The notes below the pieces were generated by a model. The model saw only the letters and a program-made list of their open reading frames with translations, had not been told where the DNA came from and ran no database searches. A DNA stretch of 45,769 nucleotides from Dehalococcoidia bacterium UBA3088 (GTDB lineage: Bacteria > Chloroflexota > Dehalococcoidia > UBA2247 > UBA3088), in contig DFBE01000066.1 in assembly GCA_002367275.1 (NCBI GenBank), positions 1 through 45,769 of the forward strand, read 5' to 3'. Made by a program: the position numbers and the translations under genes. Below, in pieces: positions 4,419 through 44,172 of this stretch (positions are counted from its first letter, which is position 1; each line of letters begins with the position of its first letter).

Positions 4419-4433
4419 AATAAGGAGGCGAGC

Positions 4434-7849: not shown

Positions 7850-7924
7850 AGTTGCCATCGATATATAATATGGGGATGACAATTCCCTAGGAGATGCCAA
7901 AGAAAGGGCTTATTAAATAGGGAT

Positions 7925-8596: not shown

Positions 8597-8645
8597 GACA
8601 AAGGTCGCAGACAGACAGTCAACTCCCATCTTAATATGATTACGG

Positions 8646-8867: not shown

Positions 8868-8970
8868 AGGCAGCATTTTCCTTTCCCTGCATCCCCAATG
8901 AGATAAAAGTCACATACAAGGATTATCTTTTTACCTAAAATAAGCTTGATTAGGAGAAGCGGAGGTAGCT

Positions 8971-9420: not shown

Positions 9421-9454
9421 AAGGCGAATTCCGGGAGGTATAAGAGCGGTAACC

Positions 9455-10432
9455 ATGGAATACAAGGACTATTATAAGACCATGGGCGTGGATAAGAACG
9501 CCACTCAAGAGGAAATAAAGAAGGCCTATCGTCGGATGGCACGGCAGTACCATCCTGATGTCAACCCGGGTAACAAGGAGACTGAAGCCAGGTTCAAAGA
9601 AATAAATGAGGCCTACGAGGTTCTGGGCAATGCCGAGAAACGCCAGAAGTATGACCAACTCGGAGCTAACTGGGAGCGATATGATGAGTGGCAGCAGGCC
9701 GGTGGTAAACCCCAAAACCAACCCTTTAATGGGAGCCAGTTTTGGTTCCGGCCTAATGGAAGCCGGGAGGCTCACTATCGAACCATGACCGAGGAAGAAA
9801 TGCAAGACCTCTTCGGACCGTCCGGTGGCTTTTCCGACCTCTTCTATACCTTCTTTGGCGCTCCCCAGAGCGAGGCTCGCAGGCAATATCGCCTCCTGCC
9901 TCAGAAAGGTGTGGATATGGAACAGGCGGTGGAGATAGCGCTGGAGGAGGCTTTTAACGGTACCGCCAGGATCATCGATATGAGCAATGGCAATGGTGCC
10001 ACCAAAACTATCGAGGCTAAAATTCCCCCGGGGGTGGAGGATGGATCGCGGGTCAGGCTCACCGGTCAGGGAGGATCGGGCATCGGGGGAGGTCCGGCAG
10101 GTGACCTTTACCTGGTCACAAAGGTTAAATCACATCCCATGTTTGAGCGAAAAGGGGATGATCTCTACGCCCAAATTTCGGTGCCACTGACGGTAGCAGT
10201 TTTGGGGGGCGAGGTTGACGTGCCTACCCTGAATAGCAGAGTGAAACTCAATATTCCGCCGGAGACGCAGAACGGAAAGGTCATCCGCCTTCGGGGTAAA
10301 GGCATGCCCAAGATTAAGCATCCCGAGAGCAAAGGACATTTATATGTCGAAGCCAAGGTGGTCCTGCCACAGAGGCTTTCAGATAGGGAGCGTGAGATAT
10401 TTCAGGAATTGGCTAAACTGAGGAAAAATTAG
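9455..10432 (+). CDS. DnaJ-class co-chaperone without zinc finger (CbpA-like, type II)
   Basis: J-domain DYYKTMGV...YHPDVN...KEINEAYEVLGNAEKRQKYDQ. No CxxCxGxG repeats. C-terminal substrate-binding beta domains are present. Confidence 0.88.
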   Translation: MEYKDYYKTMGVDKNATQEEIKKAYRRMARQYHPDVNPGNKETEARFKEINEAYEVLGNAEKRQKYDQLGANWERYDEWQQAGGKPQNQPFNGSQFWFRPNGSREAHYRTMTEEEMQDLFGPSGGFSDLFYTFFGAPQSEARRQYRLLPQKGVDMEQAVEIALEEAFNGTARIIDMSNGNGATKTIEAKIPPGVEDGSRVRLTGQGGSGIGGGPAGDLYLVTKVKSHPMFERKGDDLYAQISVPLTVAVLGGEVDVPTLNSRVKLNIPPETQNGKVIRLRGKGMPKIKHPESKGHLYVEAKVVLPQRLSDREREIFQELAKLRKN

Positions 10433-10481
10433 CATGTAGGCAGGCTTTACCCTTGCCCAAAACTAAACAAAGGAGTGTGAA

Positions 10482-11003
10482 ATGAAGGTTGAGGTCTATA
10501 CCACACCAACTTGCGGCTATTGCCACCAGGCCAAGAGATTTCTCTCTGAACGGGGAGTAAATTTTACTGAGCATGATGTCTCCCGTGATAGGGAAGCAGG
10601 CGAGGAAATGGTTCGTCGGACAGGGCAGATGGGTGTGCCGGTCATCATCATTGATGGTGAGGTAGTGGTGGGATTTGACCGCCCAGGGCTGGAGAGCCTG
10701 CTTGCCAAAAACGGTAGTGGGCAACATCCCCGCTTGGGGGTGAAGGTAGCTGATGCTAGCAAGGTAGCTCAGAAGTTTGGCCTTGCTCCAGTGTTCGGAG
10801 CGCTGGTGGGTAAGGTTGGATCTTCATCTCTAGGAGAGAAAGCAGGTCTCCGGCAAGGCGACATTATCACTGAGGTCAACTTACGGCCCATTCACAATGC
10901 AGAGGACCTGGAAAATGCCCTCTCAGCACTAACCGTGGGCAGCCGAGTGGTGATAATCTTCCTTAGAGGACAAGAGACCTTGAAATCCGAGATTGTCGCT
11001 TAG
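10482..11003 (+). CDS. Glutaredoxin-like (CGYC) protein fused to a PDZ domain
   Basis: N-terminal VEVYTTPTCGYCHQAKRFL...GVPVIIIDGEVVVGF (glutaredoxin/NrdH fold). C-terminal GEKAGLRQGDIITEVNLRPIHNAEDL (PDZ signature). Confidence 0.8.
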   Translation: MKVEVYTTPTCGYCHQAKRFLSERGVNFTEHDVSRDREAGEEMVRRTGQMGVPVIIIDGEVVVGFDRPGLESLLAKNGSGQHPRLGVKVADASKVAQKFGLAPVFGALVGKVGSSSLGEKAGLRQGDIITEVNLRPIHNAEDLENALSALTVGSRVVIIFLRGQETLKSEIVA

Positions 11004-11533
11004 CATATGGCCTAGAAAGAGCATATTCAGCCAGCAGAAGCATTGAGAGTTGAGTCATGCCAACCGCTACCCCCACAAGAGAGGTAACTTGTCTCTACCT
11101 GACCCCACAGAGCCAGGCGAGACTTCAGGGGCCGTTGACTGAGGCCCCAGCTTCTCCAAATCTTGTCTGGAGAGGCATTTTGCAGGAGGTTAATCCTGAC
11201 GCTGAGGATTTTACAGACTCAACGATTCCTGAGTCCAACCCTATATCTTCAGTTATTAAAGAGCAAAACTGTTTTCTCCCGAAGGAGTGCCTTAGCTCTA
11301 TTAGAAGTATACCACAAAAGGAGGCAATGGCGCATTCCTTCACCAGCACAAGGCTGGTGGTACCCTGCGCCCAATTTAATGGAAAAAGGGGGAATGCATT
11401 TGGCTAGCAAACGCATTGAGAGTAAAATCGAAGAAATGATTTCTAACATTGACCGTGTTCCGATGTATGACGAATTAGCAGATCAAGTACCGATAGAGTT
11501 GAGCAGTAGCAAAAAACCGGAGGTCAGATCCAG

Positions 11534-12379
11534 ATGAGAATACCTTGCAGTGCGGATGAAGTGCGAAGGCTCAGTCCTGAAGAGATGAGGGCTATCTTAG
11601 ACACAGATAAGCAGGGCGATTACATTCTTCTAGATGTGAGGCAGCCTGAGGAGTACGAAGCAGGATACATTCCCGGAGCTATACTTATTCCGCTGGGGGA
11701 ATTGGAGGCCAGGCAAGAAGAACTGGATCAGAGTAAGAAGATCATCGCTTACTGCCGCTCCGGGCATAGAAGCATGGCAGCAGCCATGACCTTGTGTGGT
11801 CTGGGATTCAAAGATATCCACCATCTTGAAGGTGGTATTATTAACTGGCACTATGAGACTATTCCTGGAATGCCTGAAGAGAGGCCTGAGTTAATTGCCA
11901 GGACAACTGATGTAAGGGATATTCTCATGCTGGCCATAAAACTGGAGAAGGATTCCTGGGATTTTTATATGGCAGCAAAAGACAAAGCTAGTCTACCCAG
12001 GGTTAGGGAAACGCTTCAGATGCTGGCTGATGTCGAAGATGACCATATGCAAAGGCTGTATGAGTGTACTGCCAATCTGGTCGGTGAGAAGGCACTTCCA
12101 CCTTTGGAGAAGCTTAAGCTAGAACTCAGGGTGGAACATATGGAAGGTGGCATCGAGATTAGCCCTGCCCTGGCCAAAGTGGAGGAATTCGCCGGTGAGA
12201 TGGAGGCGTTGGAGATAGCGTTGGAAAGGGAATTCATGTCGTATGACTTCTACAAGCGGTCATCAATGTTGGTGGGTAACCCGAATGTCAAAACCCTCCT
12301 TTATGAGTTAGCCCTGGAAGAACGGAATCATGCCGATACTCTGCTTAAGCGAGTGTCAGAAATTGTTCAGAAACGATAA
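11534..12379 (+). CDS. Rhodanese domain fused to a diiron ferritin-like (rubrerythrin-type) domain
   Basis: LLDVRQPEEYEAGYIPGA...YCRSGHRS rhodanese loop. This is followed by two helix pairs with E...ExxH (KLEKDS...VEDDHMQ; LEREF...EERNHAD). Confidence 0.8.
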   Translation: MRIPCSADEVRRLSPEEMRAILDTDKQGDYILLDVRQPEEYEAGYIPGAILIPLGELEARQEELDQSKKIIAYCRSGHRSMAAAMTLCGLGFKDIHHLEGGIINWHYETIPGMPEERPELIARTTDVRDILMLAIKLEKDSWDFYMAAKDKASLPRVRETLQMLADVEDDHMQRLYECTANLVGEKALPPLEKLKLELRVEHMEGGIEISPALAKVEEFAGEMEALEIALEREFMSYDFYKRSSMLVGNPNVKTLLYELALEERNHADTLLKRVSEIVQKR

Positions 12380-12398
12380 CTGAGAAGGGAGGATTCGG

Positions 12399-13769
12399 GT
12401 GATTTTTGAGCGCATAAAATCAGAGGGAATAGCCCACAATTCTTACTTAATCGGGTCGGAGAACGATGCTGCTGTGATCGACCCGCGGCGCGATTGCCAG
12501 ATTTACGTCGACCTGGCACAGCAGAAGGGCTTGAAAATTAAGTATATCTTCGAGACCCACCGTAATGAAGACTATGTCATAGGCTCCATAGAACTGAACC
12601 ATATAACCGGAGCCGAGATATACCACGGGCCTGGGCTGGACTGGAAGTACGGTAACACGTTGAAAGACGGACGGGAATTCCGGATCGGCAATCTCAGGTT
12701 AACTGCTATCCATACCCCAGGACACACCGGTGAGAGCATGTCCTATGCTGTAGCCGATCTCTCCTCAGGTGAAGTTACAGTAATGGCATTTACCGGGGAT
12801 GCGCTATTCGTGGGTGATGTTGGGCGAACTGATTTTTATGGTCCCCAGGAGACGCCCAGGTTGGCCTCAAATCTGTATGACAGCATCTTCCATAAGCTCC
12901 TTCCCCTGGGGGATGGGGTTATTCTGTGTCCAGCCCATGGTGCAGGCTCGGTATGTGGCATGAACATTGCCGACCGAGATGAAAGTACCCTGGGCATAGA
13001 AAGGGCGCAAAATCCGATGCTCCAGAAGAGTAGAGAGGAGTTTATACAATACAAGGTGGCTGAAGAGTTAGAAAGGGCTCCTTACTTTCGCCAGATGGAG
13101 AAGTATAATCTGGAAGGCCCTCCCCTCCTGAAGCATCTGCCTATTCCAGCTCCGCTCACTCCTAGCGAGTTCAGTAAGGAGATGGAGCGGGGGACGGTGG
13201 TCGTTGATACCAATCTGCCGGCCGCCTTTGGTGGTGCCCACATCAAATGTTCCTACAGCGTTTGGCTGGAAGGATTACCTGTTTTCGCGGGGTGGGTATT
13301 ATCTTACGATAAGCCCATCCTACTGGTGTTAGAGGACCAGTCTCATCTGGAAAAGGCCGTCCGATACCTGATCCGTGCTGGCTACGATCAGATTTCGGGC
13401 TACCTCAAAGACGGCATGGAGAGCTGGTACAATGCTGGACTTCCTACTGAGCACCTGCAACTTTTGACGGTGCAGGAGTTAAAATCCAGAGTGGATCACG
13501 GCGATGAATTGACTATATTGGATGATAGAGGGCAGGATGAGTGGAATGAAGGACACATAAAAGGTGCTAAGCATATATATGTGGGACATCTTAAGGAGAG
13601 AATGACTGAAATTCCCCAGGACAAACCAGTAGCATTAGTCTGCAATGTGGGGCATCGCGCCAGCCTTGGTGCCAGCATTCTGCTCCGAGAAGGCTGCCAG
13701 GAGGTATACAATGTCTTGGGAAGTATGACAGCCTGGGAGTCTGCTGGTTATCCTATCTCCACTGAATAG
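12399..13769 (+). CDS. Metallo-beta-lactamase-fold protein with two C-terminal rhodanese domains (CstB-like persulfide dioxygenase-sulfurtransferase architecture)
   Basis: GTG start with GGGAGG Shine-Dalgarno. HTPGHTGES, GDALFVGDVGRTDF and CPAHGAGSVCG are MBL motifs. The middle rhodanese-like domain has no Cys loop. The terminal rhodanese carries VCNVGHRA. Confidence 0.82.
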   Translation: MIFERIKSEGIAHNSYLIGSENDAAVIDPRRDCQIYVDLAQQKGLKIKYIFETHRNEDYVIGSIELNHITGAEIYHGPGLDWKYGNTLKDGREFRIGNLRLTAIHTPGHTGESMSYAVADLSSGEVTVMAFTGDALFVGDVGRTDFYGPQETPRLASNLYDSIFHKLLPLGDGVILCPAHGAGSVCGMNIADRDESTLGIERAQNPMLQKSREEFIQYKVAEELERAPYFRQMEKYNLEGPPLLKHLPIPAPLTPSEFSKEMERGTVVVDTNLPAAFGGAHIKCSYSVWLEGLPVFAGWVLSYDKPILLVLEDQSHLEKAVRYLIRAGYDQISGYLKDGMESWYNAGLPTEHLQLLTVQELKSRVDHGDELTILDDRGQDEWNEGHIKGAKHIYVGHLKERMTEIPQDKPVALVCNVGHRASLGASILLREGCQEVYNVLGSMTAWESAGYPISTE

Positions 13770-13950: not shown

Positions 13951-15480
13951 ATGGGGTTAAATTTCAACCTGATGGTGGGGGGTGAAGCGGGGCAAGGAGT
14001 ACAATCGATAGGCTTTATCCTGGCCAAAGCTTTTACCCGAGGAGGTTTTCATGTCTTTGCTGATCAAGATTATGAGTCTAGGGTAAGAGGTGGCCACAAC
14101 TTCTTTAGGGTCCGCATCAGCAACAGCAAGTTAGAGGCCATTTCCGAGTCAGTTGATATTTTGCTTGCACTAAATCAAGAAAGCGTAGATCTTCATCGTG
14201 GGAGATTGGCCCGGGAAGGGATGATGGTCTTTGATCAAGGGAGGGTTAAAGATATCAGCGGCGACAATTTCTTTGCTGTGCCCATGGCGGATCTGGCTGA
14301 GGAAAAGGTTGGTAATAAGCTGATGGCTAACACAGTCGCCCTGGGTGTGGTCTTGAGGTTAGTGGGCTATGATTTTAAAATCGCTGCCGATGTCTTGCGA
14401 GAGCAGTTTGGCGCTGTTGGAGCAGGCGAGGATAATGTCAGGGCGGCAGCGGCGGGCTATGAATACGCCACGAGCAACCTTAAGGGAAGCTTGGGGTGGA
14501 GCCTTAACCCCATAGATAGCAGAAAAAGAATGCTGATAAATGGCAACGAGGCTATAGCTTTAGGAGCTGTGGCTGCCGGGTGCACGTTCATGGCTGCCTA
14601 CCCTATGACTCCCTCCACATCTATAATGGAATACATGGCGGACAAGTCCAGGGAGACAGGCTTGGTGGTCATACAACCCGAGGATGAGATCGCAGCCATA
14701 AATATGGTGATCGGAGCTGCCTTTGCCGGAGCACGAGCCATGACTGCTACCTCAGGAGGCGGATTCTGTCTCATGGTGGAGGGGTTAGGGTTAGCCGGCA
14801 TGACAGAGACACCCATTGTGGTGGTAGTTGGGCAGCGTCCTGGCCCGGCTATTGGTCTACCCACAAGGACAGAGCAGAGTGATCTTCAGTTTGCTATTTA
14901 TGCCTCCCACGGAGAGTTTCCGCGAGCTGTTTTGGCCCCGGCCAATATTGAACATGCCTTCTGGCTAACGGTTAAGGCTTTCAACCTTGCCGAGAAATAT
15001 CAGTTACCTGTCATACTGCTAACTGACCAGCATCTGGCCAGCTCTTATTCTACAGTGGACAGATTTGACCTCTCGAGGGTGAGCATCGATAGAGGGCTAC
15101 TAGTTTCGGAGAAGGACATAGTAAGTATAGGGAAATATCGGAGACATCAGATAACACCATCGGGCATATCCCCCAGGTCTCTGCCTCTTCAGGGGAATGT
15201 TTTAGTGGTAACCGATGCTGATGAACACAATGAGGAGGGACACCTCATCGAGGATGCATCTACCCGAACTCGAATGATGTTGAAACGCTTACACAAAGTA
15301 GAGGGGTTGCAAGCTGAGATCAACCCGCCCCGAATCTACGGGCCGCACAGGGCAGAGACTGCTCTTATGGGATGGGGCAGCACCTACGGAGCGCTGAAAG
15401 AGGCAGTGGATATCTTTACAGGGCGAGGGCTTGGATGTAAACCTCCTACACCTGAGCGAAATCTGGCCCTTTCCGGCTAA
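13951..15480 (+). CDS. korA: 2-oxoacid:ferredoxin oxidoreductase alpha subunit (gamma-alpha fused), main part; reading frame broken near 15415
   Basis: GGEAGQGVQSIG...DYESRVRGGHNF (gamma domain). YPMTPST and GFCLMVEGLGLAGMTETPIVV (alpha domain). The last ~20 residues of this ORF look non-native. Confidence 0.85.
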   Translation: MGLNFNLMVGGEAGQGVQSIGFILAKAFTRGGFHVFADQDYESRVRGGHNFFRVRISNSKLEAISESVDILLALNQESVDLHRGRLAREGMMVFDQGRVKDISGDNFFAVPMADLAEEKVGNKLMANTVALGVVLRLVGYDFKIAADVLREQFGAVGAGEDNVRAAAAGYEYATSNLKGSLGWSLNPIDSRKRMLINGNEAIALGAVAAGCTFMAAYPMTPSTSIMEYMADKSRETGLVVIQPEDEIAAINMVIGAAFAGARAMTATSGGGFCLMVEGLGLAGMTETPIVVVVGQRPGPAIGLPTRTEQSDLQFAIYASHGEFPRAVLAPANIEHAFWLTVKAFNLAEKYQLPVILLTDQHLASSYSTVDRFDLSRVSIDRGLLVSEKDIVSIGKYRRHQITPSGISPRSLPLQGNVLVVTDADEHNEEGHLIEDASTRTRMMLKRLHKVEGLQAEINPPRIYGPHRAETALMGWGSTYGALKEAVDIFTGRGLGCKPPTPERNLALSG

Positions 15481-15667
15481 GACAGTATGCGCCCTGCTTG
15501 ATGGGGTTAAGCAGAGCTTTGTGGTAGAGAATAATGCTACTGGGCAGCTAGCTCGTCTCATTCAGTCAGAGACAGGAAGGAGAGTTACGGGGAATATTCT
15601 AAAATTTGATGGGCGACCTTTCACCCCTGCTCTCATCATTGAAGAGTTTAAAAGAGAGGTGAGTTGA
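15431..15667 (+). CDS. korA: C-terminal fragment of the same korA gene, in the +1 frame
   Basis: LDVNLLHLSEIWPFP...FVVENNATGQLARLI...KFDGRPF is the canonical KorA C-terminal domain. It is contiguous with the upstream ORF if one T of the TTT run at 15415-15417 is removed. Confidence 0.8.
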   Translation: MDVNLLHLSEIWPFPAKTVCALLDGVKQSFVVENNATGQLARLIQSETGRRVTGNILKFDGRPFTPALIIEEFKREVS

Positions 15668-16521
15668 TCATGGTAAATATGGATGACTATACTGGAGGTA
15701 AACCAGCTTGGTGTCCGGGATGCGGCAATTTTGGTATTCTGGCTGCACTTAAGCAGGCTCTGGTTATACTCAATATCGAGCCGCGTCAGGTGTTAATGGT
15801 CTCTGGTATTGGACAGGCGGGCAAACTGCCCCACTATACCAAGGGTAACGTGCTTAACGTCCTTCACGGTCGGGCACTCCCGGCAGCCATTGGGGCTAAC
15901 ATGGTTAATCCTGAGCTTATAGTAATTGCAGTTGGTGGTGATGGCGATGGGTATGCAGAGGGCGGAAATCACTTTCTCAACGCTGCACGGCGCAACCACG
16001 ACATCACCTATCTAGTACACGACAATCAGATCTACAGTCTGACTAAGGGTCAAGCATCCCCCACCAGCGATTTTGGCTTTGTTAGCAAGACCACGCCTCA
16101 AGGAGCAGATATGCCGCTAAATCCGATTGCTTTGACTATAGCTGCTGGAGGTACTTTTGTTGCCCGAGGTTTTGCTGGAGACATACATCATCTAGCACAG
16201 CTTATCGTGCAGGGTATTCGACATCGCGGATTTGCCTTAATTGATGTGCTCCAGCCCTGTGTTTCCTTCAACCGTAAAAATACCTACGACTGGTATAGAG
16301 AAAGGGTATACAAACTGGAAGATGAAAAATATGACCCCGCAAACAGGCTGACTGCCTTTGAAAAAGCCCAAGAGTGGGGAGATAGGATACCTATTGGGGT
16401 GGTATATAATGAGGAAAGGATCACATATGAGGAAAGGATTCCTGCCTTGAGAGAAGGTCCTTTAGCCTGGCGTAAGCTTGACCCACTGAAAGCAGAAAGG
16501 TTGCTAGATGAGTTTACGTAA
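15664..16521 (+). CDS. korB: 2-oxoacid:ferredoxin oxidoreductase beta subunit (TPP-binding)
   Basis: WCPGCGNFGIL and GGDGDGYAEGGNHF TPP motif. The ATG at 15670 is a likely alternative start. Confidence 0.9.
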   Translation: MIMVNMDDYTGGKPAWCPGCGNFGILAALKQALVILNIEPRQVLMVSGIGQAGKLPHYTKGNVLNVLHGRALPAAIGANMVNPELIVIAVGGDGDGYAEGGNHFLNAARRNHDITYLVHDNQIYSLTKGQASPTSDFGFVSKTTPQGADMPLNPIALTIAAGGTFVARGFAGDIHHLAQLIVQGIRHRGFALIDVLQPCVSFNRKNTYDWYRERVYKLEDEKYDPANRLTAFEKAQEWGDRIPIGVVYNEERITYEERIPALREGPLAWRKLDPLKAERLLDEFT

Positions 16522-20353: not shown

Positions 20354-20653
20354 TTACCTTAAATGTATAGTTGCGCGGGTCCTCCCAAAACCTGAAATTA
20401 AGGAAACTTCAAGAGAGGAAGCCAAGGGATTAAAAAACCAATTCTCACGCTTACCATTGTTTGCCTTTCTTGCTCCATTACGCAGCACCTCAAGAGCTCC
20501 TTCCCTGGCCATTCTCGCCCATCGATAGAATTGGGTATGGGCAATCTGATGGCGTCGACATACCTCACTTACCGTAGCTCCTGATTGTCTCCCATTCACC
20601 ACTATCTTCAGTTTCTGCTCAGCACTCATGCGTCTACCTTGATTTCCCTCCAT
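20354..20653 (-). pseudogene. IS3-family transposase orfA (HTH) remnant
   Basis: MSAEQKLKIV...SGATVSEVCRRHQIAHTQFYRWAR is the IS3 OrfA helix-turn-helix. The sequence degenerates afterwards and there is no orfB. Confidence 0.65.
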
Positions 20654-22544: not shown

Positions 22545-24257
22545 TTGAGTGAGAAAATGAACTGGTGTAGACTAATTTTGAGAGGGGAGGTGGAGATGCA
22601 TGAGGACGAGATAGCAATTCAGCAAGCTACCCAGAGTACGGGGGCAGACACAAATTTGCAGAGCATAGCAGATTGCATAGAAGACGAGCTTCTGATCATT
22701 GATAGAGGATACCATATCAGGTTTGTTAACTCAGCCATGCAGCGAAGATTGCCACAAAGCTATGTACCTGTGGGAAAGCGCTGTTACAAGGTCTTCGAGG
22801 GCAGGGATAATCCATGCAACTCCCCCATATGGGAGTGCCCTCTTACGAAGGTACTCCAAAACGGTAGCCCAGCGACCATCGTTCACCCAGACCACCCTGC
22901 CGGTGCAGGCGGTGCTTCCAGTAGGTATATCAAAATCACCATGTACCCGCTCAGGGATAGCCACGGCGATATCAATGCCTTTGTTGAGTTAAGAAGGGAT
23001 GTCAGCGCAGAAAGGGAACTGGAAAGGCAAATTCTAAGGCGCCATCACCACCTCTATGCTTTGAGCCGCATTTCAGGTGCTGTGAGTGGGCTGCGGGATC
23101 TAGACACCATCCTGGATGTCTCCCTTGGCGCTGTGCTGGAGATTTTCGACAGCACAGTAGGAGGAGTTCTGCTCTTTGATGAAGCAAATCAGCGCCTACG
23201 CTACCGGGCGTATCGCGGTCTGCCTGCCAAACATGTGGAACGGATGCAGATGGGCCCAGGAGAAGGAGTAGCAGGAAGGGTAGCTCAAACTGGGGAACCC
23301 ATTATAGTGGAGGATATTTCTAAGGACCCCCGGGCGGCTTACCCGGACCTAGCGAGCACAGAAGGTCTTAAGGGGTTTGCCAGTATTCCCCTGAAAGCAA
23401 AGGAAAAGGTTGTGGGCGTGATGAATATTGCTATCCATTCACCAGGACAATTTGGCACCTACGATTTGTATCTCCTGAACTCCATTGGCTACCAGGTAGG
23501 CACTGCAGTTGAGCAGGCAAGGCTATACCAAAGGCTAGAAAGGGCAGATAAAAGGCATCAGACACTTCTCCAACATGCTCTGACTGCTCAAGAGGAGGAA
23601 CGAAGGAGAATTGCCCGGGAGCTACATGATGAGACGAGTCAGGCAATTACCAGCCTGACTCTAAACCTCCAGGCTACTATAGCCACAGCGGAAATGAAAG
23701 GCGTTGTTGATGCAGAGTTAATGGACAGGATTAAAAAGACGCAATCTCTGGCGGTTCATGCCGGCAATGAGATAGTAAGGATTATGAAGGAACTGCGCCC
23801 TACCTTGCTGGATGAGCTCGGATTGGCTACGGCAATCAATCGGTATGCTAAGGATAGCCTTGAACCCCGAGGGATTAATATATCTATGGAATTTAGAGGC
23901 ATGGATGAGCGCCTACCATCAGATCTTGAACTAATGCTTTTCCGTGTCGCCCAGGGGGCGATAGGCAACATCCTGGAACACTCAAAGGCGAAAAATGCCT
24001 CTATCACACTGGAGTGCAATGCCCGTGAGTGTGTATTACACATTGAGGATGATGGTAAAGGTTTCGCTGTCAGTAAGATTACAAAGGTGGATCGTAGCGG
24101 CCGGGGCGCAGGCTTATTCACCATGAAAGAGAGGGTGAATCTGATAGGTGGCGCCTGTAGTGTTAAGTCCCAGCCAGGGAAGGGGACAAAAGTGGTGGTG
24201 GAAGTTCCACTGGTAGGAAACACGCTAGATGCAGAAGACAACCGTGCTGATAGTTGA
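22545..24257 (+). CDS. Cytoplasmic sensor histidine kinase: PAS - GAF - HisKA_3 - HATPase_c
   Basis: EEERRRIARELHDETSQ (HisKA_3 H-box) and GRGAGLFTMKERV / GKGTKV (G-boxes). GAF region GEGVAGRVAQTGEPIIVEDI. No TM segments. The likely true start is the ATG at 22596 (GGAGGTGGAG upstream). Confidence 0.88.
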   Translation: MSEKMNWCRLILRGEVEMHEDEIAIQQATQSTGADTNLQSIADCIEDELLIIDRGYHIRFVNSAMQRRLPQSYVPVGKRCYKVFEGRDNPCNSPIWECPLTKVLQNGSPATIVHPDHPAGAGGASSRYIKITMYPLRDSHGDINAFVELRRDVSAERELERQILRRHHHLYALSRISGAVSGLRDLDTILDVSLGAVLEIFDSTVGGVLLFDEANQRLRYRAYRGLPAKHVERMQMGPGEGVAGRVAQTGEPIIVEDISKDPRAAYPDLASTEGLKGFASIPLKAKEKVVGVMNIAIHSPGQFGTYDLYLLNSIGYQVGTAVEQARLYQRLERADKRHQTLLQHALTAQEEERRRIARELHDETSQAITSLTLNLQATIATAEMKGVVDAELMDRIKKTQSLAVHAGNEIVRIMKELRPTLLDELGLATAINRYAKDSLEPRGINISMEFRGMDERLPSDLELMLFRVAQGAIGNILEHSKAKNASITLECNARECVLHIEDDGKGFAVSKITKVDRSGRGAGLFTMKERVNLIGGACSVKSQPGKGTKVVVEVPLVGNTLDAEDNRADS

Positions 24258-24882
24258 TGACCACACTCTGATACGGGACGGGATCCGTGCTCTGCTGGAG
24301 TCAGTGGCAGACATAAAAGTGGTGGGTGAGGCAGTAAATGGAAAGGAAGCCCTGGACAAGGTAAAAGAGCTTATACCGCAGGTAGTGCTTATGGACCTGG
24401 CGATGCCCATCATGGGCGGACTGGAGGCAACGCGTCGAATACGTAGAGAATTCCCAGAAACAAAGATACTGGCACTAACCCAGTATGATGATAGGGAGTA
24501 TATCATCCCTATTATCGAGGCGGGGGCCCGTGGTTTCATCAGTAAGATGGCGGCATTTTCGGAGCTTGCTTCAGCTATTCAGGCTGTATCCCAGGGAGAT
24601 TCCTTTCTATCTCCCTCAGCGGCAGCAGCCCTGGTTGAGGAGTGTCAACAGAAGTCCACTGTAGAAGGGGAAAGGGATTCTTACCAGCAGTTGACCAATA
24701 GGGAGAGGGAGGTGCTTAAGCTGGTTACTGAAGGATATACTGCTAAGGAAATAGCCAGTATGCTGGTAATCAGTCTGAGAACAGCGGAGGCATACAAAAC
24801 TAGCTTGATGAGAAAGCTGAACATTCGTAACAAGGCCGATCTCATCAGATTCGCCATACGGAAGGGTGTCATAACCCTGTAA
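24229..24882 (+). CDS. NarL/FixJ-type response regulator (REC + LuxR HTH)
   Basis: VLIVDDH...VVLMDLAMP...LALTQ...FISK receiver. C-terminal LTNREREVLKLVTEGYTAKEIA HTH. Overlaps the kinase stop by 29 nt. Confidence 0.92.
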   Translation: MQKTTVLIVDDHTLIRDGIRALLESVADIKVVGEAVNGKEALDKVKELIPQVVLMDLAMPIMGGLEATRRIRREFPETKILALTQYDDREYIIPIIEAGARGFISKMAAFSELASAIQAVSQGDSFLSPSAAAALVEECQQKSTVEGERDSYQQLTNREREVLKLVTEGYTAKEIASMLVISLRTAEAYKTSLMRKLNIRNKADLIRFAIRKGVITL

Positions 24883-25063: not shown

Positions 25064-27202
25064 TTGGGAGGGGGTCTAATGTATTCAGTTTCAATGTATG
25101 AAACCAAGGATTACCCAACCGATCGAGGAGAGAAAATTTCTTTTGACCGCAGTCTTATACCGCCCTGCCAGGCTGCCTGCCCTCTACACATGGAAATCAG
25201 AGAGTATGTTGATTTGATTGCTCAGGGGAAGGTGATGGAGGCATTACGGGTTATAAGAAACGACAACCCCTTTCCCTCCATCTGTGCTCATGTCTGTACT
25301 CATCCTTGTGAGAATGCCTGCCGGCGCAGCCAGGTAGATAAACCTATCGCTATCCGGGCGTTGAAGAGGTTTGCTGTGGAATTCGGTGGAGATAGGATGG
25401 TTCAGGGCGAAGCTGAGACTATGCGTAGTGAAAGGGTTGCCATAGTAGGCTCCGGTCCGGCAGGGCTGGCCTGCGCCTATTATCTAAGAAAACTCGGCTA
25501 CCCAGTGACCATCTTCGAAGCCCATTCAGAACTGGGAGGTATGTTGCGAGTGGGTATCCCTCAATACCGCCTTCCCCGAGAGGTACTCGATACTGAAGTT
25601 CAAAGACTAATCCAGATGGGAGTTGAAATCAGGAGGAATACACGGGTGGTGTCCCTGGATCTGCTATTCGGGATGGGTTATAAGGTCATCTTTTTAACCC
25701 TGGGTGCTCATCAGGGCCTCAGAATGGGGGTAGAGGGAGAGGAGAGCCCGGGGGTAGTGGATGGAGCAACTTTTCTCCGCGAAGTGAACCTGGGACTTAA
25801 GCCATCTCTTGGGGAGAAAGCTGCTGTGGTGGGAGGAGGAAATGTAGCTATTGATGCCGCTCGTACTGCTCTCAGGTTAGGGACGAAAAGGGTGGTCATT
25901 CTATATCGGCGTAGTCGAGCAGAAATGCCCGCCGATCCCACAGAAGTGGAGCAAGCCCTGGAGGAAGGGGTGGAGGTCCAGTTTCTGGTGACACCGACTA
26001 AAATTAAACGGGCAAATGGACACTTAAGCGTAACCTGCATGCGGATGGAGCTTGGCGATCCAGATGCCGGAGGTAGGCGTCGACCAGTTCCCATCAAGGA
26101 CAGCGAGTTCGATGAAGAATTCGATACTCTGGTTACCGCCATCGGGCAGGCCCCCCAGATCCCCGAGGATTTCCATCTTCGTATGGGCAGAGGTAGCACT
26201 GTTCAGGTTGACCCGGCTACGCTTACTACTAATCGGGCGGGAGTCTTTGCTGGAGGGGATGCCGTCACTGGGCCGGCCACCGTAGTTGAGGCTTTAGCCG
26301 CAGGCAGGCAAGCAGCCCTCCGCATTGATGATTACCTTCAGCATAGATACCCGTTGGCCAACAAAGAAGTGAGGGAAGGTTTGGCTGGTGACCTCCTCCC
26401 CAAAACCTTAGACATGGTAAAGAAAACCAGCCGGCTTGAGCCGCAGGTTCTTCCCCCTGAAGCAAGAGGAAAGAACTTTGAGCCAGTGGAGCTGGTCTAC
26501 AACTGGGAAGCTGCCATCAATGAAGCAAGGAGGTGCCTCCGCTGTGGCATGGGTGCTGAAATTCTGTTCCAGGACAAGTGTGCTACCTGTCTTACCTGCC
26601 TCAGGGTCTGCCCCTATAATGTACCCTACCTGGATGAAGGTGGCGTAATCCAGATACCCGCTGATCAGTGTCAGGCTTGTGGCATATGCGTTACCCAATG
26701 CCCGGCGGGAGCGATAGTTTTGCGTAAGCCGTATGACCGACGACATGTAGCTAGTGAGCTAGACCATGCTCTCAGGTCGGCAGCAGAATCCAAGTTCAAG
26801 CCCTTCATTATCGGCTTTTGTTGCCAGTATGGACTGTTTGGCACCGGGGCCCTGGCAAGCCTCTGGAGGAGAGCTAAGGCTGGCATCTGGATAGTGCCTG
26901 TTCTTTGTGTCGCCAAGGTGGAGGCAGAGCACATATTACGTGCCTTTGAGATGGGAGCGGAGGGTGTTTTCATTGCCGGGTGTGGGGAGCAGTGTGCCAG
27001 AGAGAAGACTGCTTTCTGGGTATCGCAGCAAGTGGAGAAGGTAAGGAAGGTGCTGGTTCAGCTTGGCCTCGCATCAGAGCGTGTACAGATGTTTAATCTA
27101 TATGCCGGGGATGAAGACCCCGCTCATGCTCTGGATGAGTTTACCGAGAAAATAGGTGGGCTCTATCTGGCTTCAGTAATAAAGCAGGAGGTGAAAAGTT
27201 GA
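25064..27202 (+). CDS. GltD/NfnB-like NAD(P)H flavoprotein fused to a 2x[4Fe-4S] ferredoxin domain and a C-terminal MvhD/FlpD domain
   Basis: CQAACPLHMEIREY...ICAHVCTHPCENACRR, VAIVGSGPAGLACAYYL and VVGGGNVAIDAAR. CLRCGMG...CATCLTCLRVCP and CQACGICVTQCP (about nt 26530-26725). FIIGFCCQYG...VLCVAKVEAEHILRAFEMGAEGVFIAGCGEQC (about nt 26800-27200). Probable start is the ATG at 25079 (GGGAGGGGG upstream). Confidence 0.85.
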   Translation: MGGGLMYSVSMYETKDYPTDRGEKISFDRSLIPPCQAACPLHMEIREYVDLIAQGKVMEALRVIRNDNPFPSICAHVCTHPCENACRRSQVDKPIAIRALKRFAVEFGGDRMVQGEAETMRSERVAIVGSGPAGLACAYYLRKLGYPVTIFEAHSELGGMLRVGIPQYRLPREVLDTEVQRLIQMGVEIRRNTRVVSLDLLFGMGYKVIFLTLGAHQGLRMGVEGEESPGVVDGATFLREVNLGLKPSLGEKAAVVGGGNVAIDAARTALRLGTKRVVILYRRSRAEMPADPTEVEQALEEGVEVQFLVTPTKIKRANGHLSVTCMRMELGDPDAGGRRRPVPIKDSEFDEEFDTLVTAIGQAPQIPEDFHLRMGRGSTVQVDPATLTTNRAGVFAGGDAVTGPATVVEALAAGRQAALRIDDYLQHRYPLANKEVREGLAGDLLPKTLDMVKKTSRLEPQVLPPEARGKNFEPVELVYNWEAAINEARRCLRCGMGAEILFQDKCATCLTCLRVCPYNVPYLDEGGVIQIPADQCQACGICVTQCPAGAIVLRKPYDRRHVASELDHALRSAAESKFKPFIIGFCCQYGLFGTGALASLWRRAKAGIWIVPVLCVAKVEAEHILRAFEMGAEGVFIAGCGEQCAREKTAFWVSQQVEKVRKVLVQLGLASERVQMFNLYAGDEDPAHALDEFTEKIGGLYLASVIKQEVKS

Positions 27203-27882
27203 TAGTCGCGCAGCAGAAGCCCCTGGAGGAAATAAGGCGGCTCATTGCGCCTTATGAGAAAATATTGATTCTGGGCTGTGGCACTTGTGTGACGGTGTGT
27301 GGTGCTGGTGGTGAGCGTGAGGTCTCTTTCCTTCATGGCGCATTGCGAGTTGCCCAGGTGAAGGGTGGAGATGGGGTTCATGCCTTTTTGGAGTATACCG
27401 TAAAAAGGCAATGTGATCGTGAATTCCTGGATCCACTTGGTGATAGGGTGAGTGAGGTAGACGCCATTCTTTCCCTGGGCTGCGGCGTTGGGGTGCAGGT
27501 CGTGGCCGAGCGTTTCCCGGATGTACCTGCTCTGCCCGGTGTTAATACATCCTTCATGGGTGCAACTGAGCAAGGGGGAGTCTGGGATGAACGATGTGCT
27601 GCCTGCGGTGACTGCAGACTGGCTGAGACGGCGGGTATTTGCCCTATCACCAGATGTACTAAGGGGATACTCAACGGCCCCTGCGCTGGCACTAAGAACG
27701 GTAAGTGTGAGGCAAACAAGGATATAGACTGTGCCTGGGTCCTGATCTACAAACGCCTGGAGAGTCTGGGGCAACTGGATAAAATACGTCGATACTATCC
27801 TCCCCGGAACTTCCGGACGATCCCCCGGCCAAGAAGGTTGGCAGGCATAACTAGCATTGACCTGGGAGGAAGCAATGGCTAA
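27199..27882 (+). CDS. metV: MetV, Cys-rich small subunit of acetogen-type methylene-THF reductase (MTHFR_C domain)
   Basis: TTG start 6 nt after AGGAGGTG, overlapping the upstream TGA. ILILGCGTCVTVCGAGG and CAACGDCRLAETAGICPITRCTKGILNGPCAGTKNGKCE. Confidence 0.85.
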   Translation: MIVAQQKPLEEIRRLIAPYEKILILGCGTCVTVCGAGGEREVSFLHGALRVAQVKGGDGVHAFLEYTVKRQCDREFLDPLGDRVSEVDAILSLGCGVGVQVVAERFPDVPALPGVNTSFMGATEQGGVWDERCAACGDCRLAETAGICPITRCTKGILNGPCAGTKNGKCEANKDIDCAWVLIYKRLESLGQLDKIRRYYPPRNFRTIPRPRRLAGITSIDLGGSNG

Positions 27883-28777
27883 TTCGCTGTTTGAGGAAAA
27901 GCTTTATTCCGATAAGTTCCTGGTGACATCAGAGGTTGGACCTCCCAAGGGGATGGATGTTGCGGACATGGTCCACCATATAGATCTGCTCAAGGATAAG
28001 GTTGACGCCATCAATATTACTGACCATCAAAGCTCAGTGATGCGTTTCCCCTCCCTGGGGGGGTGTCTATTGGTGAAGGAACGTGGTGGTGAGCCTATCT
28101 TTCAAGTAACTTGCCGCGACCGTAATCGTCTGGCCATCCAGGCGGACCTTCTTCTGGCCTGTTCCCGGGGCATCCAGAATGTGCTTTGCCTCACCGGTGA
28201 TTCCATTGATGTTGGGGATCATAAGGAGGCAAAGCCGGTATTTGACCTGGACTCGGTGCAACTGCTGAGAACAATTAAGACGATGGAATCGGGGAAGGAT
28301 CTGGGAGGTAGCGATTTTAAGGGTTCACCGAAATTTTGCGTGGGTGCCTCGGTCCATCCAGAGGCAGACTTCATTGAGCCGCAGCTCATCAAGTTTGAAA
28401 AGAAAGTTGCTGCCGGGGCGCAGTTTTTCCAAACCCAGGGCATATTCGGCTTAGAAAGCCTTCGCCGGTTCATGCAGTATGCCTCCCAGTTCGAGGTTAA
28501 GATACTGGCGGGCATTATAGTCCTGTCCTCAGCCAGGATGGCTCAGTATATGAATGATAATGTCCCGGGAATAATTGTTCCTCAACCCATTATTGATGAG
28601 CTATCCAGTGCAGGGAAGGGTAAGGGACTTCAAAAGGGAATGGAGATTGCTGCCAGGTTGGTAAGGACGATAAAGGAGGAGAACCTATGTCATGGAGTTC
28701 ACATTATGGCGGTGGGTAATGAAGGGATCGTACCCGATATCCTGGAGATGGCTCAGATAGTCGGCGCAGCTCCCTGA
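27875..28777 (+). CDS. metF: Methylenetetrahydrofolate reductase, acetogen-type MetF
   Basis: FLVTSEVGPPKG...INITDHQSSVMR...TCRDRNRLAIQADLL...CLTGD. ATG at 27875 (GGGAGGAAG upstream) overlaps the metV stop by 8 nt. The track ORF starts at 27857 (TTG). Confidence 0.9.
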   Translation: MANSLFEEKLYSDKFLVTSEVGPPKGMDVADMVHHIDLLKDKVDAINITDHQSSVMRFPSLGGCLLVKERGGEPIFQVTCRDRNRLAIQADLLLACSRGIQNVLCLTGDSIDVGDHKEAKPVFDLDSVQLLRTIKTMESGKDLGGSDFKGSPKFCVGASVHPEADFIEPQLIKFEKKVAAGAQFFQTQGIFGLESLRRFMQYASQFEVKILAGIIVLSSARMAQYMNDNVPGIIVPQPIIDELSSAGKGKGLQKGMEIAARLVRTIKEENLCHGVHIMAVGNEGIVPDILEMAQIVGAAP

Positions 28778-28840: not shown

Positions 28841-29641
28841 ATGGGAAACAAGGAAAAGATCCTGATCATAGATGATGAACCCGATTTTGTGGAGGCCTTC
28901 CGGATGACTCTGGAGGCTAAATTCTATCGGGTGATATCTACCACTAGCAAGGCCCAGGCCCAGGAAAGGATAAGAGGAGAGCCTCTCGATATCATTGTTC
29001 TGGGCACAATAGCCCCCGCGGGGGAAGCATTCTCCCTGCATCGGTGGCTAAAACAGCATCCCAAGTTTAAAGATATACCGCTCCTGGTGGTAGATGCACG
29101 GCCTCAGGAACGGTCGGTTAAGGGGTGGAGGAGGTTCGAGGGGATGCGGCTGGAGTCTGAGGACTATGTAAGTAAGCCCATCGAACCAGCTTCATTAGTG
29201 CCCCGTATCCGAAGCCTGCTGGAAGAGGCAACAAAGCATATAAAAGTACTGGTTACAGATGACCATACCATGGTCAGGGATGGGATATGTGCTGTTCTCA
29301 TGCTGCAAAAGGAGATGGAGGTAGTGGGCGAGGCCACCAATGGGAAGGAAGCATTGGAGAAGGTGCTACGGCTTATTCCCGACGTGGTGTTAATGGATAT
29401 AGTCATGCCCGTGATGGGTGGGTTAGAGGCAACAAAGCAAATAGCCAGGCAACAACCCCAGACCAGGGTTTTGATCTTAACCCAATATGATGAGGAAGAG
29501 AACATGCTGGTTGCCAAGCAAGTGGGAGCCTACGGCTTTATACCCAAGAAGGCAGCCACTTCACAGCTTATAGACGGCATAAGGTCTGTATACGGAGGGA
29601 TGTACTTTCCGGCGTCTTTTGCGGAGATGGTTTCAAGCTAA
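28841..29641 (+). CDS. Output-less double receiver protein (pseudo-REC + REC)
   Basis: REC1 has Gly at the phospho-acceptor position (PLDIIVLGTIAP). REC2 is canonical (VVLMDIVMP, ILTQ, IPKK) and closely resembles the receiver of the NarL-type regulator at 24229. No HTH. Confidence 0.85.
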   Translation: MGNKEKILIIDDEPDFVEAFRMTLEAKFYRVISTTSKAQAQERIRGEPLDIIVLGTIAPAGEAFSLHRWLKQHPKFKDIPLLVVDARPQERSVKGWRRFEGMRLESEDYVSKPIEPASLVPRIRSLLEEATKHIKVLVTDDHTMVRDGICAVLMLQKEMEVVGEATNGKEALEKVLRLIPDVVLMDIVMPVMGGLEATKQIARQQPQTRVLILTQYDEEENMLVAKQVGAYGFIPKKAATSQLIDGIRSVYGGMYFPASFAEMVSS

Positions 29642-32767: not shown

Positions 32768-33541
32768 CTAGTTTTCATCAATCACTACCCTCTCGTCATG
32801 GGTGTAGATGTTCATCCTCTTCCCTCTAACAAAGCCGATGAGGGTTATGTCCAAATCGTTGGCCAATCTCACACCTAAGTTGGTGGGGGCGGATTTGGAA
32901 ACAAGCAGAGGAATATTCCTTTTGGCCACCTTGAGCAATATCTCTGAGGAGACCCTTCCACTGGTGATTATTAAACGGTTGTCTGTTGGTATGTCCTCCA
33001 AAAGGCACTCCCCGAATACCTTGTCGATGGCATTATGTCTTCCAATGTCTTCGCTGAAAATCAGGAGGCTATCTGCCTCACACAGGGCAGCGCTGTGAAC
33101 GCCGCCTGTAGTTTTGAAAACCTCGGAGCGCTGCACGAAATTCTCCATCAATGAGAAAATCTGAGAGGATGATAACTTCATTGGAGACTCTACGCTCACC
33201 CTTTGGACTCCGGAAAGGGCGGTGCACTCCCTTCCTCCACCGGAAGCGAGGAGCGGTTTAGAAAGGACATTTACTTCTCTCTCGGTTTCCACTCGCGCCA
33301 CACCTGTTTCTCTATCCAGCTTTATTTCCCTGATTTCGTCCTTGCTCTTTATCAAATCCTCAGACCAGAGGTAGCCCACGGTTAAATACTCCAGCTTTGT
33401 CGGGGAGCAAAGGAGCGTTACCACTTCTTGATGGTTAAGGATGATGGTAAGGGGAAGCTCGGTAACGACGACATCCTCGATCTCATTCCTGCCCTGTTCA
33501 GTAAATTGCAGTATAGTAATCCTCTCTATCTCTTCTCTCAT
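32768..33541 (-). CDS. fdhD: Formate dehydrogenase accessory sulfurtransferase FdhD
   Basis: TGGVHSAALC...DIGRHNAIDKV...SGRVSSEILLKVAKRNIPLLVSKSAPT. Confidence 0.9.
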   Translation of the reverse strand: MREEIERITILQFTEQGRNEIEDVVVTELPLTIILNHQEVVTLLCSPTKLEYLTVGYLWSEDLIKSKDEIREIKLDRETGVARVETEREVNVLSKPLLASGGGRECTALSGVQRVSVESPMKLSSSQIFSLMENFVQRSEVFKTTGGVHSAALCEADSLLIFSEDIGRHNAIDKVFGECLLEDIPTDNRLIITSGRVSSEILLKVAKRNIPLLVSKSAPTNLGVRLANDLDITLIGFVRGKRMNIYTHDERVVIDEN

Positions 33542-43328: not shown

Positions 43329-44171
43329 CTACTTAGGAAGGTGCTCTCGGTACATTGTCTCAAGATCTGATAGCTCCTCCACGGGTGTGGGTATCACCCG
43401 AGAGTCGTTTTCCATAATCTTTCGGGCAAGCTCTCTGAATATCTCTGCCTCCCTGGAATCGGGGGCGTACTCCAGTACCGCCTTTCCTTTTATCTCACAG
43501 GCTTGAATTGTGGGAGTACGGGGGACAAGCTCAATGAATTTACTCCCCAACCTTTGGGCAAACGCAGGTAGAACTTCCCTTTCCAGCCTTTCATCTCCAC
43601 CGCTATTGCCTATTACCCCCGAAAGCCCGGTATCTCCCCTCTTAGCCAGGCGCTGAATGGCTTTGGCAATGTTGTTGGCCGCATAGATGCTCATAAAGCC
43701 TCCTGAGCAGATAAGATAGATCTCCCGGGCAAATCCGTGACGGATGGGTTGAGCAAATCCACCGCAGACTACATCCCCCAGAACATCGTAGATGGCAATA
43801 TCTATACCATAAGTTTCAAAGGCCTTAAGGTCAGTAAGTATCTGAAGCGCAGTCAGCACTCCCCTCCCCGCACAGCCAATACCTGGTTCTGGACCCCCTG
43901 ATTCCACACAGCAAACCCCATTAGGGGCTTCAAATATGATGTCCGGAAGTGCGATGGCATATTCATCCTTACCCATCCGGAGCTTCTCCCGAAGTGTCTC
44001 CAGGACAGTGGTGATGAGTCGACCCCCGGCTAAAATCCGGGTGGAATCTCTCTTGGGGTCACATCCTACCTGCATCACTTTTAGTCCCCTCTCTTTTAAA
44101 GCCATGGATAGGTTTGAGGCAATGGTGCTTTTCCCTATTCCTCCTTTACCATATATAGCTATTTGTCTCAT
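43329..44171 (-). CDS. Nitrogenase iron protein-like ATPase (NifH/BchL/CfbC family)
   Basis: IAIYGKGGIGKST P-loop. CVESGGPEPGIGCAGRG and DVLGDVVCGGFAQP carry both [4Fe-4S] Cys ligands. ATG at 44171 follows GAGGTGGTGA, 1 nt after the upstream stop. The track ORF extends to 44228. Confidence 0.88.
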   Translation of the reverse strand: MRQIAIYGKGGIGKSTIASNLSMALKERGLKVMQVGCDPKRDSTRILAGGRLITTVLETLREKLRMGKDEYAIALPDIIFEAPNGVCCVESGGPEPGIGCAGRGVLTALQILTDLKAFETYGIDIAIYDVLGDVVCGGFAQPIRHGFAREIYLICSGGFMSIYAANNIAKAIQRLAKRGDTGLSGVIGNSGGDERLEREVLPAFAQRLGSKFIELVPRTPTIQACEIKGKAVLEYAPDSREAEIFRELARKIMENDSRVIPTPVEELSDLETMYREHLPK

Positions 44172-44172
44172 C

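Follow-up and report, generated by a model that had tools for sequence, protein, structure and literature searches.

A GltD-ferredoxin-MvhD fusion encoded with metV and metF in Dehalococcoidia bacterium UBA3088, a proposed NAD(P)H entry subunit for methylene-tetrahydrofolate reductase

We analyzed a stretch of 45,769 nucleotides from Dehalococcoidia bacterium UBA3088 (contig DFBE01000066.1 of assembly GCA_002367275.1; the whole stretch is called the window here), in which three overlapping open reading frames (ORFs) on the forward strand, spanning 25079–28777, encode a large flavin- and iron-sulfur-type fusion protein followed by MetV and MetF, the latter being the TIM-barrel subunit of methylene-tetrahydrofolate (methylene-THF) reductase (MTHFR). 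The fusion ORF as mechanically called opens at a TTG at position 25064 and codes for 712 amino acids. The ATG at 25079 is probably the start, giving a product of 707 amino acids, because GGGAGGGGG is located four bases before this ATG and because an identical 707-residue gene is annotated on the same sequence in an independent ENA assembly. The TTG start of metV at 27199 shares bases with the TGA of the fusion gene (gTTGAta, a 4-nucleotide overlap) and has AGGAGGTG upstream, and the metF ATG at 27875 overlaps the metV end by 8 nucleotides (ATGGCTAA) with GGGAGGA upstream of the ATG. A preliminary description of this DNA had considered the three genes translationally coupled, and the two overlaps bear this out; its ORFs and overlaps stand as given, and only its start at 25064 is replaced by the probable one at 25079. 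A promoter and terminator scan showed no signal above shuffle expectation.

Table 1. Positions of the operon and its conserved flanking genes in the window, followed by distant loci that carry the fusion gene (positions within a distant locus are marked with its label).
Feature or locus	Position	Strand	Description
PAS-GAF-HisKA_3 sensor kinase and LuxR-type response regulator	22545..24882	+	part of six-gene block
Fusion gene, 707 amino acids	25079..27202	+	GltD/NfnB/StnC-like NAD(P)H-FAD module, 2x[4Fe-4S] ferredoxin and MvhD; proposed electron-input subunit
Fer4_20-type Cys-rich region	25160..25384	+	C30, C34, C69, C73, C77, E78, C81; predicted ligands of two GltD-type [4Fe-4S] clusters
Pyr_redox_2 region, two dinucleotide folds	25433..26305	+	FAD fold GSGPAG 124-129; NAD(P)H fold GGGNVA...LYRRSRAEMPAD, YRR 276-278
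Permuted segment, residues 458-489, ending RCLRC	26450..26545	+	cluster cysteines C486, C489
2x[4Fe-4S] ferredoxin domain	26579..26704	+	two CxxCxxCxxxCP motifs, CATCLTCLRVCP 501-512 and CQACGICVTQCP 531-542
MvhD/FlpD domain	26807..27157	+	putative [2Fe-2S] ligands C582, C610, C635, C639
metV, 227 amino acids, 13 Cys	27199..27882	+	TTG start overlapping fusion stop codon
metF, 300 amino acids	27875..28777	+	MTHFR TIM-barrel subunit; ATG 8 nucleotides inside metV end
Response regulator, two receiver domains	28841..29641	+	directly downstream of metF in close clade
L020			Planctomycetes; fusion overlaps metV by 4 nucleotides
L092			'Ca. Tripitaka', Planctomycetota; metVF-adjacent fusion near FTCD and urocanase genes
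L093			archaeal-looking contig; fusion divergent from fused MetV-MetF, near CdhC/CdhD
L094			metagenome contig; CODH-AcsB-CdhD-fusion-MetV-MetF-NuoE-like-AcsE-NuoF-like
L095			Anaerolineae; fusion-MetV-MetF
L096			Actinomycetota-like; AcsB-CdhD-fusion-MetV-MetF-ThyX...AcsE
L099			Nitrospiraceae/Acidobacteriota-like; FolE-FolD-fusion-MetV-MetF
L098	7001..9079 (L098)		Bacillota/Dethiobacteria; fusion without metVF, between ppdK and dnaG-rpoD
L015			Bacillota/Dethiobacteria; fusion without metVF; contig shows downstream dnaG only
L097	7001..9106 (L097)		cultured Natranaerofaba carboxydovora; fusion without metVF, near flavodoxin genes
L100	5001..7118 (L100)		one further lineage; fusion without metVF

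The domain and motif matches of the three genes are far beyond chance. In the numbering of the 712-residue ORF, Pfam places Fer4_20 at residues 33–107 of the fusion (5e-21), Pyr_redox_2 at 124–414 (1e-30), a 4Fe-4S dicluster domain at 503–551, and FlpD/MvhD at 582–698 (1.4e-20), and the N-terminal 550 residues match GltD-like 'NAD(P)-binding protein' models of NCBIfam. The NAD(P)H fold reads GGGNVA...LYRRSRAEMPA. All eight cysteines of the ferredoxin domain are invariant in homologue alignments, and the Fer4_20-type region likewise shows invariant columns. The cysteine motifs of the MvhD domain are FCC (580–582), LC (610), and GCGEQC (634–639), in which C582, C610, C635, and C639 are shared by all 45 homologues compared, with identity down to 33%, and align with cysteines of the solved MvhD chains 5odc_D, 9sfi_K, and 8rvu_F; which four of the motif cysteines hold the [2Fe-2S] cluster is predicted on this basis. 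The complete set would comprise two GltD-type [4Fe-4S] clusters (the Fer4_20-region residues of Table 1, with C77/E78 as a pair, plus C486 and C489), two ferredoxin-type [4Fe-4S] clusters, and the MvhD [2Fe-2S] cluster. Pfam, NCBIfam, and solved chains therefore agree with the parts named earlier (GltD/NfnB, ferredoxin motifs, MvhD), and the misalignment of ferredoxin or MvhD cysteines that had been named as a possible refutation was not observed. Assignment as the glutamate synthase small subunit GltD was rejected on the basis that TIGR01317, TIGR01318, and TIGR01316 all scored below their cut-offs and no GltB is present in the window. MetV, encoded directly upstream of metF, matches DUF5981/MTHFR_C (PF12225, 2.4e-35), and MetF matches MTHFR (PF02219, 5.9e-34) over profile positions 3–286 of 287 as well as MTHFR chains in the PDB. 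MetF and MetV of the acetogen type are described as lacking a nucleotide-binding site (PMC8760232).

The closest solved matches to fusion residues 27–542 are Caldicellulosiruptor NfnABC (9bov_A, 3e-119) and Sporomusa StnC (8oh5_C, 6e-109), with Thermococcus NfnABC (9n5u_A) also among the best; all three outrank NfnB (4ylf_B, 5jca_L), GltD, and DPD. Residues 458–489 of the fusion correspond to the N-terminus of NfnB (residues 11–42 of 4ylf_B, ending RCLQC), relocated behind the flavin and nucleotide domains, and the same order is seen in StnC and NfnABC. The fusion further shares with these proteins the YRR(T/S)xxEMPA motif and a non-arginine residue at the position of Arg333 of NfnB. However, StnC and NfnABC continue into NuoG/FdhF-like domains and belong to transhydrogenases with HydBC-like subunits, whereas the fusion of the window continues into ferredoxin and MvhD domains and adjoins MetVF. 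With NfnB, it has in common the Fer4_20 plus Pyr_redox_2 fold, two [4Fe-4S] clusters, the CE motif (C77-E78), and the equivalent of Arg201, but it differs by the relocated N-terminal segment and the added ferredoxin and MvhD domains. An NfnAB identity was rejected for the lack of an NfnA partner in the window and for the Asp at the Arg333 position.

About 8000 homologues of the fusion are present in databases, and the best 120 of these are full length, 76–81% identical, and have the same Pfam set; the named hosts among these 120 are metagenome genomes of Chloroflexota/Dehalococcoidia. The close clade as a whole is 69–81% identical to the fusion and collapses into one representative upon 50% clustering, with the next relatives at 46% identity or less. 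A metagenome contig scan performed with the single fusion protein gave seven loci. A six-gene block with the order sensor kinase, LuxR-type regulator, fusion, metV, metF, and double-receiver regulator is kept in L001, L002, L003, L086, and L088, and also in L085, where the kinase and the downstream regulator are cut by the contig. The order holds to the contig limits in L004 and L089, and the L087 contig stops inside the fusion gene with only the upstream genes visible. The fusion-metV-metF order was found in eight of eight informative close-clade loci. As the two-component genes travel with fusion-metV-metF while the outer genes differ, dedicated signal control of the reductase is suggested. 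The upstream intergenic region contains short conserved stretches such as AAAATTC...GTAAAAC. L002, a relative at 79% identity, also showed a second MTHFR-family gene (positions 1–245, 296 amino acids) about 10 kb upstream of the block, indicating that these genomes may carry two MetF paralogues.

Full-length fusions at 33–43% identity were found in more distant bacteria and in an archaeal-looking contig (Table 1), and of the 11 loci whose context could be read, 7 have metV and metF adjacent to the fusion. These seven fusions are 35–42% identical to that of the window, and four of them lie within carbon monoxide dehydrogenase/acetyl-CoA synthase (CODH/ACS) or folD clusters. A genome contig scan was also performed using the family alignment, for which degenerate patterns proved too general; the matches listed included Moorella-like, NuoF-GltD, and Planctomycetes loci and no close relative. 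In a rough neighbor-joining tree, the fusions not linked to metVF cluster together and the linked ones span the remainder. Conservation of the gene neighborhood across phyla strongly supports the fusion as a dedicated electron-input subunit of MetVF. Linkage was seen in Chloroflexota, Planctomycetes, the archaeal-looking contig, and others, and the central idea of the preliminary description, an NAD(P)H-linked input for MetVF, gains support from the adjacency in both close and distant loci.

Several of these loci showed further variations. In L093 (4199–5830), MetV and MetF form one protein of 543 amino acids on a contig with CdhC/D, an archaeosine TGT, and archaemetzincin. In the acs cluster of L094 (5001–11693), a NuoE-like [2Fe-2S] protein, AcsE, and a NuoF-like flavin mononucleotide (FMN) protein follow fusion-MetV-MetF, and the reductase could be joined by them in a larger HydBC/Stn-like assembly. 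In L096 (1–3304), an intein with a LAGLIDADG endonuclease domain is present in the AcsB/CdhC gene that lies upstream of the fusion. A Dehalococcoidales locus, L022 (4779–9504), codes for a 1040-residue NuoE-like/NuoF-like (FMN)/GltD-like fusion lacking MvhD directly before MetV-MetF, and tblastn alone indicated the same GltD-MetV(-MetF) arrangement in L021 and L024; the MetF proteins of L021 and L022 are 67–68% identical to that of the window. The L022 type is another uncharacterized MTHFR architecture, with a composition resembling Stn/NfnABC-type bifurcating enzymes. In L009, GltD modules adjoin an FdhA. In these lineages, GltD modules evidently serve as plug-in ports for NAD(P)H.

Among the recognized types of MTHFR, type III (RnfC2-MetV-MetF, Acetobacterium woodii) was reportedly described by Bertsch et al. 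in 2015 and type IV (MetFV-HdrCBA-MvhD, Moorella thermoacetica) by Mock et al. in 2014. Four types are recognized, namely MetF alone, MetVF, RnfC2-MetVF, and MetVF-HdrCBA-MvhD (PMC8760232), in agreement with the list in the preliminary description. A GltD NAD(P)H domain is part of the Moorella HdrA, which oxidizes NADH, a reaction for which the type IV system showed 190 U/mg, and MvhD of S. ovata binds MetF in pull-downs (PMC9430772). Moorella-like HdrA proteins of 1474–1511 residues are encoded in L028 (Bacillota), L040 (Bacteroidota), and L048 (Anaerolineae), and the HdrA of L012 (a delta proteobacterium) is split in two. Their GltD insert is 38–45% identical to residues 10–511 of the fusion, their C-terminal ferredoxin domain is 31–44% identical to the ferredoxin region (residues 483–605 at most), and a separate MvhD (29–33% identical), MetV, and MetF follow HdrA. 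The operon of the window therefore shares with type IV the MetF, MetV, and MvhD components, a GltD-type FAD/NAD(P)H entry, a 2x[4Fe-4S] ferredoxin directly before MvhD, and the order ...Fd-MvhD-MetV-MetF (Fd, ferredoxin), and all three parts of the fusion are matched in L012, L028, L040, and L048. In contrast to type IV, it has no thioredoxin-reductase-like HdrA cores, which carry the putative bifurcating FAD and which the rest of the window lacks as well, and GltD, ferredoxin, and MvhD form one chain of 707 residues instead of an HdrA of about 1480 residues with a separate MvhD. HdrA models match only the C-terminal ferredoxin and MvhD part of the fusion, and neither HdrB (CCG domains) nor HdrC was found, whether in the window or in the block that relatives conserve.

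A similar C-terminal arrangement is present in HdrA2 of Methanosarcina acetivorans, an HdrA with fused MvhD (NF040770). Residues 502–697 of the fusion (712-residue ORF) match positions 575–768 of the 777 in this model (1.4e-30); however, the catalytic core of the fusion is of GltD type rather than HdrA type, the whole protein scores 106 bits against a cut-off of 1100, and an HdrA identity was rejected on the basis of the match being limited to the C-terminal part. The type III enzyme resembles the operon in having a MetVF core and one flavo-iron-sulfur subunit with a pyridine-nucleotide site, three subunits in all, and the characterized A. woodii enzyme is non-bifurcating (PMC8760232). Its input module is unrelated, being RnfC/NuoF-like with FMN, whereas that of the window is GltD/NfnB-like with FAD and MvhD, and no RnfC or Complex1_51K domain was found in the operon or elsewhere in the window. 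As the Moorella HdrA already includes such a GltD domain for NAD(P)H, the fusion is a trimmed subset of type IV parts, and the operon corresponds to a Moorella-type system without HdrA cores and HdrBC. The earlier suggestion that the fusion could replace HdrABC plus MvhD thus holds for HdrABC; MvhD is retained rather than replaced, and the GltD module is not foreign to the Moorella system.

On the basis of these comparisons, we propose with moderate confidence that the three genes encode a soluble, heterotrimeric, non-bifurcating NAD(P)H (probably NADPH):methylene-THF oxidoreductase with the fusion as its dedicated pyridine-nucleotide entry subunit. A hydride from NAD(P)H, more likely NADPH, would be transferred to the FAD of the GltD/StnC-like module, and single electrons would then pass through the two [4Fe-4S] clusters of this module, both clusters of the ferredoxin domain, and the [2Fe-2S] cluster of MvhD. 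From there they would arrive at the MetV Fe-S clusters and the MetF flavin for reducing methylene-THF so as to yield methyl-THF, and the reverse direction would be possible. The FAD would simply convert two-electron into one-electron transfer, as it does in StnC, GltD, and DPD. The predicted complex would be a functional analogue of RnfC2-MetVF of A. woodii and, by descent, probably a Moorella-type system reduced to GltD, the C-terminal ferredoxin, and MvhD. NADPH is favored, softly, as the donor because the nearest solved modules bind NADP(H) and the β2 strand ends in YRR, which is present in 118 of 120 close homologues.

Several observations weigh against this proposal. The HdrA-GltD proteins of Moorella-like loci also have YRR and the Moorella enzyme uses NADH, which keeps the NADPH call soft, and YRR cannot be taken to prove specificity for NADPH. 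One sister variant with an identical operon context (P0121, L088 5001–7121), itself 69–72% identical, carries CLES where the β2 strand of the NAD(P)H fold otherwise ends in YRRS and differs in the stretch of about 70 residues that follows, and most of the distant fusions have CLE at the YRR position. An acidic residue at this β2 position is the classical NAD-preferring signature, and CLE versus YRR may mark NADH-using and NADPH-using versions of the enzyme. The fusion also occurs without metVF in four distant loci (L015, L097, L098, and L100), so it can act alone or with partners encoded elsewhere; metVF linkage is the rule and is not universal. Unlinked occurrence, which had been named as a refuting outcome, is thus seen in a Bacillota clade and one other lineage, and the remaining loci retain the linkage. 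The AlphaFold2 monomer of the fusion, which served for fold search only, reached a moderate mean predicted local distance difference test score of 69.6, with Fe-S regions below 50. Finally, MvhD usually docks to HdrA or a hydrogenase, and such a partner may be encoded beyond the window.

This last point leads to a different role, which we consider distinctly unlikely, in which the fusion is an adaptor whose MvhD domain docks MetVF to partners encoded at other sites, such as HdrBC, an Mvh-type hydrogenase, or a membrane complex, and the donor is not NAD(P)H alone. MvhD links hydrogenase to HdrA in methanogens (PMC5861303), type I Acetothermia carry metVF-hdrA-mvhD apart from hdrBC and mvhAG (PMC9586279), and MvhD of S. 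ovata is largely membrane-associated (PMC9430772). However, the fusion itself provides a complete FAD/NAD(P)H site, and a search of the window and of the regions flanking the conserved block in relatives found no hdrB/C, hydrogenase, or rnf genes. The loci with the fusion alone in Bacillota would instead suit a stand-alone ferredoxin:NAD(P)+ oxidoreductase (Fnor-like) that is co-regulated with a ferredoxin-dependent MetVF and supplies or removes reduced ferredoxin with no physical complex. Stand-alone NfnB-like proteins do work as Fnor enzymes (PMC12221290), and reduced ferredoxin is an in vitro electron donor of type II MetVF (PMC8760232). Nevertheless, the 4-nucleotide stop/start overlap with metV, in both the window and L020, and the cross-phylum adjacency are typical of subunits of one complex, and MvhD stands directly before MetV as in the Moorella order, which makes the Fnor-like role very unlikely.

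Flavin-based electron bifurcation by MTHFR has long been proposed in acetogens (PMC8760232, PMC5861303), and the fusion could be viewed as part of a compact bifurcating or confurcating MTHFR in which NADPH is oxidized at an NfnB-like FAD, with MetVF as the high-potential branch and ferredoxin, through [4Fe-4S] clusters, as the low-potential branch. Bifurcating NfnB (4ylf_B, 5jca_L) is a homologue of the GltD module, and the two kinds of Fe-S exit could form two branches, one through MvhD and MetV to methylene-THF and the other through the [4Fe-4S] chain to ferredoxin; such an enzyme, though doubtful, would be the smallest known bifurcating MTHFR. The relatives L094 and L022 have NuoE/NuoF-like bifurcation-type modules beside MetVF, and R164, the Arg201 equivalent, is invariant. 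However, R164 is conserved in StnC too and hence does not discriminate, and the homologous FAD of StnC is a non-bifurcating NADPH entry point (PMC10482914). Published criteria set bifurcating NfnB apart from its non-bifurcating relatives by an N-terminus that is extended ahead of the first Cys pair, by Arg333 (PfNfnI-B numbering), and by an nfnA gene upstream (PMC12221290), and the fusion shows none of the three. Its N-terminal segment is permuted in the manner of StnC, and Asp286 (EMPA-D286) aligns with Arg333 of 5jca_L (EMTA-R333), a position that is Arg in T. maritima NfnB and Glu, Glu, and Asn in the non-bifurcating modules StnC, 9bov_A, and 9n5u_A. No nfnA (PyrK-like) was found in the window, where the gene directly upstream of the fusion codes for the LuxR-type response regulator. 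Reduction of methylene-THF by NADPH is moreover exergonic without coupling. NfnB-type bifurcation is therefore disfavored on the present comparison, as is the bifurcating or confurcating option of the preliminary description, and we regard this reading as unlikely. If it were true, the most exergonic step of the Wood-Ljungdahl pathway would be energy-conserving in a system simple enough to reconstitute.

The literature search found no paper that describes or characterizes a GltD-ferredoxin-MvhD protein with MetVF, consistent with the earlier statement that this architecture is not among the biochemically described MTHFR types. A 'gltD' gene is drawn without comment in Wood-Ljungdahl clusters of Actinobacteria (PMC7325909). 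One Chloroflexi study stated that metV is confined to marine subphylum I (PMC5736913), which the loci described here no longer support. Databases name the fusion 'formate dehydrogenase beta subunit', 'hydrogenase iron-sulfur subunit', or 'FAD-dependent oxidoreductase', and JGI labels many family members, MetVF-linked ones included, with the first of these (a K15022-type name). FdhB of the NADP-dependent formate dehydrogenase of M. thermoacetica is similar in being a GltD-like NADP-binding Fe-S protein (PMC5736913). However, neither in the window nor in any of the 18 fusion loci whose flanks could be read does an FdhA or molybdopterin subunit adjoin the fusion; the reading as a formate dehydrogenase beta subunit was rejected on this basis, and the label on MetVF-linked genes looks like annotation carry-over.

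The electron donor of MetVF-type MTHFRs and energy conservation at this step are long-standing questions of acetogen bioenergetics (PMC8760232, PMC9430772). The six-subunit Moorella complex resisted full assay, with no physiological NADH-to-methylene-THF activity and its second acceptor unidentified. The operon described here appears to encode a widespread MetVF reductase in which known input parts are arranged in a new way. This novelty is real, though smaller than that of a wholly new module taking the place of Hdr. The operon is found again in Chloroflexota, Planctomycetota, Nitrospiraceae/Acidobacteriota-like and Actinomycetota-like bacteria, and the archaeal-looking contig, often in acs clusters, and shows clearly how the GltD module for NAD(P)H is reused as a building block. 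It probably represents a fifth architectural type of MTHFR, useful for pathway reconstruction in uncultured lineages and currently mislabeled by pipelines. As a minimal three-protein system, it would make the role of MvhD as a connector to MetV, and bifurcation, directly testable.

Genes beyond the six-gene block vary among the close relatives. In the window, positions 1783–13769 hold an oxidative-stress and sulfur-transfer run with catalase, rubrerythrins, several rhodanese-domain proteins, a Crp-family regulator, and a CoA-disulfide-reductase-like flavoprotein with a rhodanese domain. It is followed at 13951–16521 by a pyruvate:ferredoxin oxidoreductase-type (POR-family) enzyme of a strictly anaerobic type, beside which such a run is unexpected. 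Between a thioredoxin-domain gene and the conserved block, a 99-residue transposase-type helix-turn-helix fragment (HTH_Tnp_1, 20354–20653, reverse strand) lies in DNA with little other coding signal. An FdhD/NarQ-family gene for formate dehydrogenase maturation is located 4 kb downstream of metF (32768–33541, reverse strand), although no formate dehydrogenase catalytic subunit was found in the window. At the window edge (43329–45208, reverse strand), a NifH-family ATPase is encoded with a nitrogenase-component-1-type protein, the second of which may run off the end.

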